Assembly: GCA_963724935.1 (NCBI GenBank)
Contig: CAVRWK010000003.1
Span: forward strand, 75,697 to 139,696
DNA: 64,000 nucleotides
Direction of reading: 5' to 3'
Source of the DNA: Vulcanimicrobiota bacterium
GTDB lineage: Bacteria > Vulcanimicrobiota > Vulcanimicrobiia > Vulcanimicrobiales > Vulcanimicrobiaceae
Each line of letters begins with the position of its first letter. Within the stretch, counting starts at the first letter, position 1. The position numbers and the translations under genes were made by a program. The notes beneath the pieces are model-generated. The model did no database searches, was not told the origin of the DNA, and saw nothing but the letters and a program-made list of their open reading frames with translations. This document shows, piece after piece, positions 23,483-33,950 of this stretch.

Positions 23483-26400
23483 CTACGTCGCCATCGTCGC
23501 GTGCGCCGCGGCGTACTCTTGCAGGCTGCGGGGAGCTTCCGCCCGGCTGCCGAGCGCCTCCGCGAGGGCCCGGGCCGTATCCAGACTGGTCAAACACGCG
23601 ATACCCGCTTCTACCGCCGCGCGGCGAATCTTGTAGTTATCCGATATTTCACGCGGACCGGCAGCGTCGTTGATCACGAGGTCCACGCGGCGCGACGAAA
23701 TCAAGTCGAGCACGTGCGGCGAACCTTCGGCGATTTTATTGATCGGTTCGCACGCGATGCCGGCCGCTTCCAAGACCCGCCGCGTACCGGGCGTCGCCAC
23801 CAACGTGTGTCCCAGCTCGGCATAACGCCGCAGAACCGGCACCGCTTCGGCCTTTTCGGCGTCGGCGATCGAAACGAGGATGCGCCCGCCGCTGCCCGGC
23901 ATGCGCACGCCGGCCGCGATGAATCCTTTGCGCAGCGCACCGGCAAACGTAGCGTCGATCCCGAGCACTTCGCCGGTCGACTTCATCTCCGGTCCGAGGA
24001 TCGTTTCGACGCCGCGCATTTTCGAAAACGAAAAGACCGGCACTTTCACCACGACGAACGGCACGGCCGGACGCAACCCGGTGCCGTACTGCATGTCCCG
24101 CAAGCTTTCGCCAAGCGCGATACGTGTTGCCGCTGCGACGATATTGATCCCGGTGGCTTTTTGGATGATCGGAACCGTGCGGCTGGCGCGCGGATTGGCT
24201 TCGATGATGTACAACTGTCGTCGTGCACCACGAATTGAATGTTGATCAACCCGCGAATTTCTAGCTCGCGCGCGACGGCCTCGGTGACCTCGGCGATGCG
24301 ACGTTCCATGGCTGCGTCGATCGTTTGCGCCGGATAGGCGCTAATCGAATCGCCGGAGTGAATGCCGGCGCGCTCGACGTGTTCGAAGATGCCGGGAATC
24401 AGAATGTCCTCGCCGTCGAAGACCGCGTCGACCTCGACTTCGAGCCCGCGCAAGTATTTATCGACCAGCAACGGGGCGTCGGGAACGATATCGGCGGCGC
24501 GGACTCGGCGTACGAAGCCAGCTGGCCTTCGTTGTACACGATTTCCATCGCGCGACCGCCCAGCACGAACGACGGACGCACCAGCACCGGAAAGCCCAGT
24601 TCGCGCGCGATCGCACGCGCCTCGCGGAAGCTGCGTGCGGCGTGCCCTTGCGGACGAGCGACGCCGAGGCGCGATAGCGCGGCGTCGAACTGCTCGCGAT
24701 CCTCGGCCATGTCGAGCGACGCACGGTCGCTGCCGACGATTCGGACGCCGCGAGCGCTGCAGCTCGGCTGCAAGATTGATCGCGGTCTGTCCGCCGAACG
24801 CCAGCATCACGCCGCGAGCGTTGGTCGCGCGGTACGCCGCTTCGACTTCGTCGGCGCCGGCGGTTCGAAGATCAGCACGTCGGAGATATCGAAGTCGGTC
24901 GAAACCGTTTCGGGATTGTTGTTCACGACGACGGGGCGAACGCCGGCGGCCTTGCAGCGCCCACGCCGCGTGCACGCAGCTGTAATCGAACTCGATGCCC
25001 TGTCCGATGCGAATCGGACCGCTGCCGACCACGACGACCGCCTCGCGCTCGACGCACGCGCATCTCGTCGCTCTCGCCGCGCGAGAGATAGTAGTACGGC
25101 GACTTGGCCGGAAACTCGGCCGCGGCGGTATCGACCATGCGAAAGCCGGCGAGCCGGTTCGGCCGAGGCCACGCTCGCGATGCGTGAGCCCGCACTCGAG
25201 CGGCTTGCCGGCGGTCAGCCGGCGACGGGTCGACGCGCAGACGCTCTTCCAAGCTCGACGAGATCGGCGAACTCGTTCAGCCAAAAGCGGTCGATCGACG
25301 AAAGTTCGGCGATGCGCTCGATCGCACCGTGCCGGTCGCTGGCATCGAATCGCTCGGGAAACATGTCGCGACGCAGCAGCTCGCAGACCGCGAAGAGCCG
25401 CTCGTGCGTCGGCGTCGCGACGACGGCTTCGAGTTCGGCGTCGCTCCACTCGTCGTAGCGCGCCGGTGAGCGTTTCGACGCTTGAGATCGAGGCCGCGGA
25501 CCGCCTTGATCAGCGCGGCGCGGAACGTGCGGCCGATGCCCATCGCTTCGCCGGTCGATTTCATCTGCGTTCCCAGACGCGTGTCGGCGAGCGGAAACTT
25601 GTCGAACGGCCAGCGCGGAATCTTGACGACGACGTAGTCGAGCGTCGGCTCGTACGCGGCTTTGGTGACGCCGGTGACCGGGATTGGGAATCTCGTCGAG
25701 CGTCTGTCCGAGCGCGATGCGCGTCGAAATCTTGGCGATCGGATAGCCGGTGGCTTTCGAGGCGAGCGCCGAACTCCGCGAAACGCGCGGGTTGACTTCG
25801 ATGATCGCGTATTCGCTGCGCATCCGGATGCAACGCGAACTGAATGTTGCAGCCGCCCTGCACGTTGAGCGCGCGGATCACGTTGATGCTCGGCGGTGCG
25901 CAGCATCTGATATTCGAGATCGGACAGCGTCTGCGAGGGCGCGACGACGATCGAATCGCCGGTGTGCACGCCGACCGGATCGATGTTCTCCATGTTGCAG
26001 ACGATGATGCAGTTGTCCGGCTTGTCGCGCAGGACTTCGTACTCGATCTCTTTCCAGCCGAGCAGCGACGTTTCGAGCAGCGCTTGATGGATCAGGCTGG
26101 CCGTCAATCCCGCGTCGAGCGTTTCGCGCAGCTGCGTTTCGTCGTAGACGATGCCGCCGCCGGTTCCGCCGAGCGTGTACGCCGGCCGAACGACCAGCGG
26201 ATAGCCTTTGCGTTCGGCAAAGGCGACGCCGGCCTCGATGTCGGTGACGATCTCGCTCTCGGGCACCGGCTCGCCGATCTCGATCATCTTGCTCTTGAAG
26301 CGCTCGCGGTCTTCGGCCAGCTTGATCGTCTCGATCGGCGTGCCGAGCAGTTCGACGCCGTATCGTTCGAGGACGCCGGCTTCGTCGAGCTCGACGGCAA

Positions 26401-26691
26401 GGTTCAGCCCGGTCTGGCCGCCCAGCGTCGGGCAGCAGGGCGTCGGGCCGCTCGCGCGCGATGATTTGTTCGATCGACTCAACGGTCAGCGGCTCGAGGT
26501 ACACCGCGTCGGCGACCTCGGGATCGGTCATGATCGTCGCCGGATTCGAGTTGACGAGGACGATCGCGATGGCCTTCCTCGCGCAGCGCGCGGCACGCTT
26601 GAACGCCGGCGTAGTCGAATTCGGCAGCCTGACCGATGACGATCGGTCCGGAGCCGATGACCATGACATTCGCGGGGCATGCTGGAGCCAT
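23483..26691 (-). pseudogene. carB: carbamoyl-phosphate synthase large subunit, ~16 frame changes
   Basis: Ordered CarB segments are scattered over all three minus frames. Examples: [117 protein letters not shown]. Further examples: [80 protein letters not shown]. Confidence 0.85.
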
Positions 26692-26742
26692 TTCATTGGC
26701 CTGCCGACGCTCGCAGTCCTGGAAAGCTTGGGGATGGCCCGA

Positions 26743-31978: not shown

Positions 31979-32889
31979 GCCGAGTTATCGTTCCAGAGCT
32001 TCGCACGCGCCGTCGATCGGCCCGGCAGAGTCGTCGATCGTAGGTAAACGCGGCGCGTTCGAGCGCGCGCAGCAATCCGCGCATCGCGCGGTCGCCGGCT
32101 TGCGCGGCAGTCGCAGACGCGGACAACGTCTCGCCTTCGATCGCGCCGATCAGTCGCCACACGACCCCGCGAACGCGCACGGCCGTCAGCGCGCGTTGCG
32201 ATCGGCGCGCAGAACCAGTAAGCGCATCTTGCAGTTGGTCGCGCCGATCGTACGCGGGGGCATCGCCGGCGCTGCGTCGGCCGCCGGCGGCGCCGTGCGA
32301 ATGTCTGCAACCGCGGCCGCCGGCGCGCGATCGCGATGACGATCAGCACGATGACGATGCAGATAACGCACCGAGCCCGAGGACCAGACGATGAGGCCGC
32401 GCGCGGCGCAGAGTCGACGAGCTGTCTCGCATCGCTTGCTCTCGGGGCTCGTCACCGGCGAGCCCGCCCCGGTAACGTCGAGGTCACGGATTGGTCGAAT
32501 ATTGCTTGGCCTTGCCGTCGTGAGCATCGATGGCTTGCAGCGTCGGCCGGCGCGAGCGCGATCTTCCCGGCGTGGTGCGCGGCGACCGAGATCGTTTCGC
32601 GATACGTCGATCCGCCGGGCGCCGCGCTGACTTGGCGCTCGTCGCCGAGCAGTTCGACGACGCCAGCAGCGGAAGTTCGAGGTTGTCGATCGAGCCGACG
32701 TTCTCGCGTACGTGCAACGTGACGATCAAGTGAAACGGCACGTCCACGTGCGGCGTCGCCGTGTCCGACGACAGCGTGAAGCGTTGCACCGTCAGATGCT
32801 GCAGCGGCGCCGCGCCGGCTGTGCCGGAATGCCAGAGCGCGATCGCGAGCGCTGCGAGCGCTCGCGATAAGCCGGCGGATTCGAACCAT
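31975..32889 (-). pseudogene. BatD-like / unknown secreted-membrane protein of the MoxR cluster, frame-shifted
   Basis: Likely N-terminus [29 protein letters not shown] (signal-peptide-like, itself split over two frames). Then [43 protein letters not shown] / [39 protein letters not shown] / [22 protein letters not shown]-like VICIVIVLIVIAI follows. The end ...LWNDNSA* overlaps the moxR ATG (ATGA). Family assignment is weak. Confidence 0.4.
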
Positions 32890-33950
32890 TGCGTGAAGAG
32901 TTGTACGCGCGTCGAACGGACCGGGCGACGCTTCGGGGTGAAACTGCACGCCCGCGATCGGCAGCGAGCGATGGCGGAAACCTTCGTTGGTGCCGTCGTT
33001 GAGGTTGGTCATCGTGGCTTCCAGTTCGACCGGTAGCGATGCCGGCGTCGACCGCATAGCCGTGATTGTGCGCGGTGACGATCACTTCGCCGCCACGATA
33101 TCTTTCACCGGTTGATTTCCGCCCCGATGACCGTACGGAAGTTTGTACGTCTTCCACCGTAAGCCAGCGCCAGCAATTGGTGCCCCAAGCAGATGCCGAA
33201 CAGCGGCTTGCGTCCGATCAACGCACGCAAGCGTCTCGATCGTTTCCGGCAAGTCGGTCGGATCGCCGGGTCCGGGCGAAATGAAGACCGCCTGCGGAGC
33301 GGTGGCGAGGACGTCGTCGCTCGATGCATCGTACGGCAGTACCGTTATTCGAGCGCCTAGTGCTTGGAGTTCCCGGAGAATCGCGCGTTTGACGCCGCAA
33401 TCGATCAGCGTCACCGCGTATCCCGCCTGCCGGGCCTTCGACGGTCGCGGTTCGAGTTGCGACGCGAGGCGACCAAGCCGGCATCCGTATCTCCGCGCAC
33501 GAATTCGGCAAGCTTGCGTTCGGCGTCGGCCAACGCGCCCTCGCCAACCGCCAGCGCACCGGCGATCGTTCCGTGCTCGCGCAACGCGATGGTAATCGAC
33601 CGCGTGTCGGCGCCGATGAGCGCGGGAACGCCTTGCTCGTCCAGCCACGACGACAAATCTGTTCGACTCAGATGGTGCGATGGGTGCGTTGCAATCTGCT
33701 TGACCACGGCGCCTGCGACGCAAGCCCGCGAATATTGGGATGCGCTACCCGAAATGCCGTAGTTGCCGATCATCGGATAGGTGAACGTCAAAATCTGACC
33801 GGCGTACGACGGATCGGTCAGCGCTTCTTCGTAGCCGGTCATGCCGGTGTAAAAGACGGCCTCACCTAGCGCCAATCCGTCGGTCAAGCCGTAGCCGTCG
33901 AAGCGGCTCCCGTCGGCAAGAAACAGGGCGGCGGCAGGCGAGGAATGCAT
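32880..33950 (-). pseudogene. carA: carbamoyl-phosphate synthase small (glutaminase) subunit, >=6 frame changes
   Basis: Segments: MHSSPAAALFLADGSRFDGYGL...AVFYTGMTGYEEALTDPSYAGQILTFTYPMIGNYG / YAVTLIDCGVKRAILRELQALGARITVLPYD...VFISPGPGDP / KPLFGICLGHQLLALAYGG / TYKLPYGHRGGNQPV / [13 protein letters not shown] / [24 protein letters not shown]. They are spread over three frames. The 3' boundary is uncertain. Confidence 0.8.

Follow-up and report, generated by a model that had tools for sequence, protein, structure and literature searches.

Bacterial genes that keep their order and their peptide segments while frameshifts interrupt them are known from pseudogene decay, as in Mycobacterium leprae and in symbionts recently restricted to a host. 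Private 1-nucleotide (nt) insertions and deletions (indels), together with substitutions, are found in a single assembly in low-support long-read regions (Nanopore reads, metaFlye assembly, Medaka polishing) and in chimeric strain joins, and programmed ribosomal frameshifting or transcriptional slippage also shifts the frame inside a gene. Here we analyze positions 23,483 to 33,950 of a 64,000-nt stretch of contig CAVRWK010000003.1 from a Vulcanimicrobiota bacterium (the window, by which we mean that whole stretch), where the seven genes from carA to carB change reading frame again and again. We conclude that this block is very probably an assembly or polishing artefact and not a biological feature. 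Almost certainly, the seven genes are intact in the organism and the frame hops are errors of the record. We favor this reading because the seven genes are all intact in three assemblies of the species made independently of this one.

With low-support long-read regions the block shares not only its private 1-nt indels and substitutions in one assembly but also abrupt limits that ignore genes, a bursty density, an apparent recurrence at other loci of the clade from a long-read soil dataset (L050, L010, and L041), and intact counterparts in short-read assemblies. Residual Nanopore consensus errors are usually sparse and tied to homopolymers or methylation motifs, whereas the density in the window is 10 to 100 times higher; unlike such errors, the block is insertion-biased, CpG-creating, and homopolymer-avoiding, with a clean strain-specific island in its middle. 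Natural decay is biased toward deletions and AT, produces a wide range of indel sizes, accumulates stops, and proceeds at or below the neutral rate, and the block fits none of these. Programmed frameshifting was rejected, as it needs one conserved slippery site per gene, while the window has ~200 sites over seven genes, no shared motif, and uninterrupted orthologues.

The window has a GC content of ~63%, and in a protein search, whose hits seem capped at ~1.75 times the query length, its CarB fragments have their best matches in Candidatus Eremiobacterota (Baltobacteraceae, Tumulicola). In L001 (OY970223.1), the chromosome of a relative, the order of genes is pyrB, pyrC, carA, BatD-like, moxR, DUF58, vWA, pdxH, carB, an unnamed gene, a penicillin-binding protein gene, pknB, and ruvCAB, and the minus strand of the window has the same order. 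The seven genes of the block are the following.

23,483 to 26,680, minus strand: carB, carbamoyl-phosphate synthase large subunit; 29 indel events
28,617 to 29,272, minus strand: pdxH (PNPOx); 17 indel events
29,269 to 30,164, minus strand: BatA-like vWA gene; 40 indel events, ~1 per 23 nt
30,161 to 31,010, minus strand: DUF58 gene; 38 indel events, ~1 per 22 nt
31,010 to 31,978, minus strand: moxR (AAA_3 ATPase); 14 indel events
31,975 to 32,880, minus strand: BatD-like gene; 50 indel events, ~1 per 18 nt
32,861 to 33,950, minus strand: carA, small subunit; 15 indel events, the last at 33,464

An initial annotation, made from the window alone, had named these genes, described their order as conserved, and pointed to ATGA overlaps at three junctions, all of which holds. 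Synteny with L001, L002, L003, and L082 agrees with the order; Pfam analysis of intact orthologues returns CarB, PNPOx/PdxH, VWA, DUF58, MoxR (AAA_3), BatD-like, and CarA, the BatD-like match scoring 23.1 bits, just under the cutoff of 24.1; and the ATGA overlaps are found at 31,975 to 31,978, 30,161 to 30,164, and 29,269 to 29,272.

The frame hopping described there is also seen by two routes, a frame plot of GC content at third codon positions and a Viterbi frame caller built on a codon model. The caller, with codon usage trained on the window's intact genes, divides 24.2 to 33.4 kb into ~38 frame segments and the rest of the window into segments of gene length. The hops, put at ~45, are thus real, but that number reflects visible net changes of frame and not lesions, the total of which is far higher. 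By pairwise alignment the block has 202 indel events; 146 are insertions and 56 are deletions, and 177 of all the events (88%) are 1 nt long; the more conservative three-way alignments (window/L002/L003 and window/L082/L003) give ~167 private indel columns. These indels are accompanied by ~590 private substitutions in the block. The individual lesions resolved by eye are recovered by alignment, exactly so for the surplus C at 26,566 and for the T that is lacking at 24,217, and as an extra base at ~31,890 for the moxR example placed near 31,881. Two further observations also stand: the lesions have no tie to homopolymers, as only 20 of 127 one-nt insertions (16%) touch an identical base, and there are no in-frame stops, with none in ~2,800 codons after indel correction (inserted bases deleted and missing bases padded).

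A closer look at the limits of the noise shows that the damage is indeed localized, but not as one continuous block from 23,483 to 33,950. It runs from 24,112 to 33,464 in two stretches, interrupted by an island that is free of both indel and substitution noise.

23,483 to 24,111, minus strand: carB 3' end (its final ~630 nt), clean, with 0 indels and 6 private substitutions
24,112 to 26,672, minus strand: noisy stretch 1, ~855 codons from the 5' end of carB; the private changes in alignments to L002 and L003 are 29 indel events (24 insertions, 5 deletions) and ~126 substitutions
26,724 to 28,614, minus strand: strain-specific island of 1.9 kb with two intact paralogous open reading frames (ORFs) of a lipoprotein or beta-propeller-like (NHL/YncE-like) type; 56 to 59% GC
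~28,789 to 33,464, minus strand: noisy stretch 2, pdxH through most of carA, with ~170 private indel events and ~460 private substitutions
33,465 to 33,950, minus strand: clean 5' end of carA, the first ~490 nt, without lesions

Outside these limits the sequence is quiet. There are 0 indels relative to L002 over 21,406 to 24,111 and none relative to L082 over 33,501 to 35,500, a comparison that takes in intergenic sequence between the carA and phosphoesterase genes. Since the 3' end of carB is clean, the noise boundary lies inside a gene; both limits are intragenic, at 24,112 in carB and 33,464 in carA, and are unrelated to biological units. Within stretch 2 the noise is bursty, with peaks at 30.0 to 30.8 kb and 31.8 to 32.6 kb. 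Elsewhere in the window, same-strand switches of frame all fall at the stop codon of the upstream gene, with three exceptions: a candidate frameshift at ~13,857, a short segment that is spurious, and the end of the window.

To establish whose lesions these are, the block was compared with its relatives. A scan of species-representative genomes, a set in which the window's species has only L002, gave L002 and L003, while L082, L083, and L084 were reached via protein-cluster look-ups. L002 is a MEGAHIT contig of Candidatus Tumulicola sp. and has 98% nt identity with the window over 21,406 to 24,111, as against 88 to 92% for L003; L082 is a JGI (Joint Genome Institute) contig that holds carA through pdxH plus the start of the island. 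All seven genes are uninterrupted in the same-species contigs (L002, L082, and L084) and in the relative L003, and L083 is intact as well. carB is a 1,062-amino-acid (aa) open frame in both L002 and L003, and L082 has frames of 362 aa for carA, 292 for the BatD-like gene, 323 for moxR, 273 for DUF58, 306 for vWA, and 199 for pdxH. More widely, an intact carB frame of 1,041 to 1,250 aa is present in ~70 of 75 fully covered relatives. Although L001 calls of 461 and 548 aa had suggested that carB is naturally split in this clade, that candidate was rejected, as L001 has a single frameshift and those ~70 relatives have one long frame.

In the three-way alignments, every coding indel polarizes to the window. 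Window-specific substitutions number 8 to 45 per 200 nt within the noise and 1 to 5 outside it, whereas the changes peculiar to the other two lineages keep the same level on both sides of the noise boundary. After indel correction, CarB has 95.4% aa identity to L002 with 0 in-frame stops; the corrected BatD-like protein has 68% aa identity, the reference in this case being the more distant L003. Recombination from another known lineage was also considered and rejected, since L002 is the nearest of 81 loci all along the block and the surplus changes, being confined to the window and indifferent to codon position, are not foreign alleles.

As a separate observation, L002-specific changes amount to ~10 per 500 nt in 24,000 to 31,600 and ~4 per 500 nt in 21,406 to 24,000, so that genuine divergence also differs about twofold. 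This region, beside the variable island, may have a different strain history, for example through recombination or strain mixing.

The reading that survives next best is very recent, localized pseudogenization, in which the native carAB-moxR cluster has been inactivated and is decaying neutrally; the initial annotation had offered it alongside a consensus artefact, which it held at least as likely. We consider it very unlikely. In its favor, all seven genes have many frameshifts, the deposited record contains the lesions, and the private substitutions show no preference for a codon position, which is what an absence of selection would give. Window-specific substitutions in carB fall 33/23/67 on codon positions 1, 2, and 3, compared with 9/1/51 for L002-specific and 11/3/135 for L003-specific changes; the corresponding window-specific counts are 33/40/50 in DUF58, 22/30/31 in vWA, and 10/10/10 in pdxH. 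Net of divergence like that of the sister lineage (L002), the excess has a synonymous-to-nonsynonymous ratio of ~0.27, against 0.29 for random changes.

The spectrum of the changes is nevertheless the reverse of that of the lineage, being GC-enriching, poor in transitions, insertion-biased, and almost entirely of 1-nt indels. The transition-to-transversion ratio is 0.8 for window-specific and 2.3 for L002-specific substitutions. AT>GC changes outnumber GC>AT changes in the window by 162 to 102, compared with 14 to 80 for L002-specific changes, and per site the AT>GC excess is larger than these raw counts because only 36% of sites are A or T. Of the window-specific substitutions, 31% are G<->C transversions. 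Among inserted bases, C (64) and G (61) outnumber A (30) and T (20), and deletions fall mostly on A (31), with T (12), G (11), and C (11) behind it, a strand-asymmetric pattern; half of the 1-nt insertions create a CpG. Natural bacterial mutation, by contrast, is reportedly biased toward deletions and AT.

The amount of change is equally hard to reconcile with decay. Private divergence at codon positions 1 and 2 is 3.3% in carB, 4.5% in moxR, 5% in pdxH, 11% in vWA, and 13% in DUF58, whereas private third-position divergence in the flank is ~2.2%, which sets a neutral ceiling of ~2 to 4%. Divergence at positions 1 and 2 above that ceiling means that relaxed selection alone cannot give these values. 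Decay should moreover span whole genes, yet carB is undamaged in its final 630 nt and carA in its initial 490 nt; it should leave in-frame stops and large deletions, of which the block has none; and strains of the same species are intact, the island-bearing L082 among them.

The island itself occupies a site between pdxH and carB that varies among strains: L002 has nothing there, L003 has a different 1.1-kb insert, and L082 and L102 have the island, in L102 together with a third gene. Its two ORFs lie at 26,743 to 27,642 (299 aa) and 27,643 to 28,743 (~304 to 366 aa, with a likely true start near 28,557). Compared with L102, the island shows no net frameshift over 1,656 nt, and its mismatches are biased to third positions (36/29/91 and 10/7/24 relative to L102; 5/6/23 relative to L082). 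The 197 nt of carB that adjoin the island already hold two private insertions, those of stretch 1 at 26,672 and 26,566, which are thus recovered in comparison with L102 as well. An island protein exactly matches a database protein on a 994,611-bp NCBI/ENA contig, and a scan of metagenome contigs with the island protein returned only paralogues, at 36% identity or less.

Exact look-ups place two truncated products of the block on record as well, a C-terminal CarB fragment of 243 aa and an N-terminal CarA fragment of 179 aa (P0367 and P0370), both assigned to the same 994,611-bp contig as the intact neighboring proteins. The noise was therefore deposited, and the window was not altered. The source would be a deposited long-read metagenome-assembled genome from a Candidatus Tumulicola-like species of Eremiobacterota.

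Many of the relatives belong to the Microflora Danica dataset, whose genomes were assembled by metaFlye from Nanopore data alone and polished with a single Medaka round (PMC12313526). When all loci are ranked by the density of frame switches, the top three, L010, L050, and L041, are all long-read Microflora Danica loci (there are 33 such loci, and the membership of the window's own contig in this set is not proven), while the same frame-switch detector finds a comparable block in 0 of 48 short-read loci. The dense blocks lie at 1 to ~6,500 in L050, ~12,100 to 18,500 in L010, and ~3,350 to 4,500 in L041. In L050 the noisy 6.5 kb covers carA through pdxH and stops at the start of carB, with private indels in almost every 500-nt bin, a transition-to-transversion ratio of 0.84, and more AT>GC than GC>AT changes. 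The nearest relatives of L050 flip at the noise boundary, from L042 and L036 in the noise to L064 and L059 in the clean part, which indicates a chimeric join. Ordinary errors in these genomes are much rarer: carB has one frameshift apiece in L001 (within 8,496 to 11,647), L054, and L073. L003 belongs with these relatives of the long-read dataset that show sporadic single frameshifts; it has the N- and C-terminal parts of DUF58 in different frames and a shortened pdxH (4,006 to 5,772 and 5,860 to 6,369).

These comparisons bear on the view that the lesions are real products of mutagenesis. In one form, G/C-inserting, CpG-creating mutagenesis of 7.5 kb in a Tumulicola strain destroyed carAB, pdxH, and the moxR-vWA operon and spared an island acquired later, which we regard as a slim chance indeed. 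Real localized hypermutation of ~7.5 kb of chromosome in general, for example by error-prone synthesis that adds G and C, with the island either arriving later or being protected, we hold to be extremely improbable. Such a process would suit changes so strongly patterned, in which insertions create CpG, A is lost, and G<->C transversions are frequent, as well as the depletion of created stops and the sparing of the island. No bacterial process is known, however, to put 10% substitutions and 3% one-nt insertions into kilobases of sequence. A matching signature, moreover, appears at unrelated positions in the long-read loci L050 and L010, in L050 at a chimeric join, and in none of the 48 short-read loci, and a strain deprived of carAB, pdxH, and the moxR operon together would probably be less fit. 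A change made to the window after its download, with the noise in no public sequence, has virtually no probability and is refuted by the CarB and CarA fragments that stand on record with intact neighbors.

An artefact of assembly or polishing thus remains the favored reading, in keeping with lesions that are private, blind to coding, of an unnatural spectrum, bounded within genes, and apparently recurrent in long-read genomes. Under this reading, the 24.1 to 33.5 kb interval would be sequence of roughly raw-read quality that was never fixed by consensus polishing, with a bursty error level of ~3 to 13% substitutions and 1 to 5% indels. Those parts of the interval that are common to co-occurring relatives may have been represented by one or very few reads at assembly, and the reads needed for polishing would have been absent or drawn off to a rival copy of that sequence. 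Reads would have mapped uniquely to the island and to the flanks on either side, which would have been polished clean as a result. Alternatively, a single bursty low-quality read over ~9.4 kb could have given rise to the block. The source pipeline was likely Nanopore-only.

The more specific cause proposed at the outset, a GC-rich stretch poor in short reads and bridged by long ones, finds no support in that form. GC content accounts for little of the noise, with a weak correlation inside the block (Spearman coefficient of 0.32), flanks of equal GC content are clean, and bins of 50 to 60% GC within the noise still have ~1% indels.

Several points weigh against an artefact. Low coverage or read disagreement over the block is inferred from the assembled sequence, and the place of the contig in the Microflora Danica dataset is, as noted, not proven. 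The insertion-biased, CpG-creating, homopolymer-avoiding profile is not that of textbook Nanopore consensus error, and a local error of up to ~20% is high for R10.4.1 chemistry. The clean island calls for an extra assumption, either unique read mapping or bursty error that spared the island by chance. Finally, random noise with the observed base spectrum would be expected to create ~3.5 to 5 stops and 0 are observed (P of ~0.003 to 0.03), a marginal anomaly that the GC-ward, CpG-creating bias of the noise may explain. Noise that is in some way protein-aware was considered on account of the missing stops and a mean BLOSUM62 score of -0.28, slightly milder than the -0.56 for random changes, and was rejected, both being judged marginal; the GC-ward bias may explain the scores as well.

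Elsewhere in the window, a few features merit mention. At ~13,857, one frame change divides a gene for an extracytoplasmic function (ECF) sigma factor (ORFs at 13,057 to 14,499 and 13,209 to 13,835, minus strand), so that Sigma70_r2 and r4_2 are read in a different frame from DUF6596, which is matched from profile position 27 on. At that place the window has a 1-nt insertion, a T, in comparison with L003, and no other site in the flanks is a convincing frameshift candidate. Within pknB, the window and L003 differ by a +1/-1 pair of single bases at 19,766 and 20,335, 570 nt apart. The window ORF is unbroken, so it is probably L003, or else a variable linker, that holds the shifted stretch. Between carA and pyrC are two tandem paralogues of the PF04185 phosphoesterase family (526 and 500 aa; 34,004 to 37,025), which are kept in L082 and are not at that position in L001. 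Seven tRNA genes (Gly-GCC, Leu-TAG, Lys-CTT, Lys-TTT, His-GTG, Arg-TCT, and Pro-TGG) and a small signal recognition particle RNA, in the stretches 57,052 to 57,235, 58,801 to 59,344, and 63,446 to 63,544, are all intact and ordinary.

The block is foremost a warning about data quality, as ~7.5 kb of a public genome probably stands at raw-read quality and its truncated products have entered protein collections. Taken at face value, such blocks lead to false pseudogene counts, false calls of arginine and pyrimidine auxotrophy, and inflated numbers of protein clusters, and the warning extends to similar long-read genomes of the clade, here L050, L010, and L041. For the biology of the organism the block is without import: its carAB, pdxH, and moxR-operon genes are almost certainly intact.

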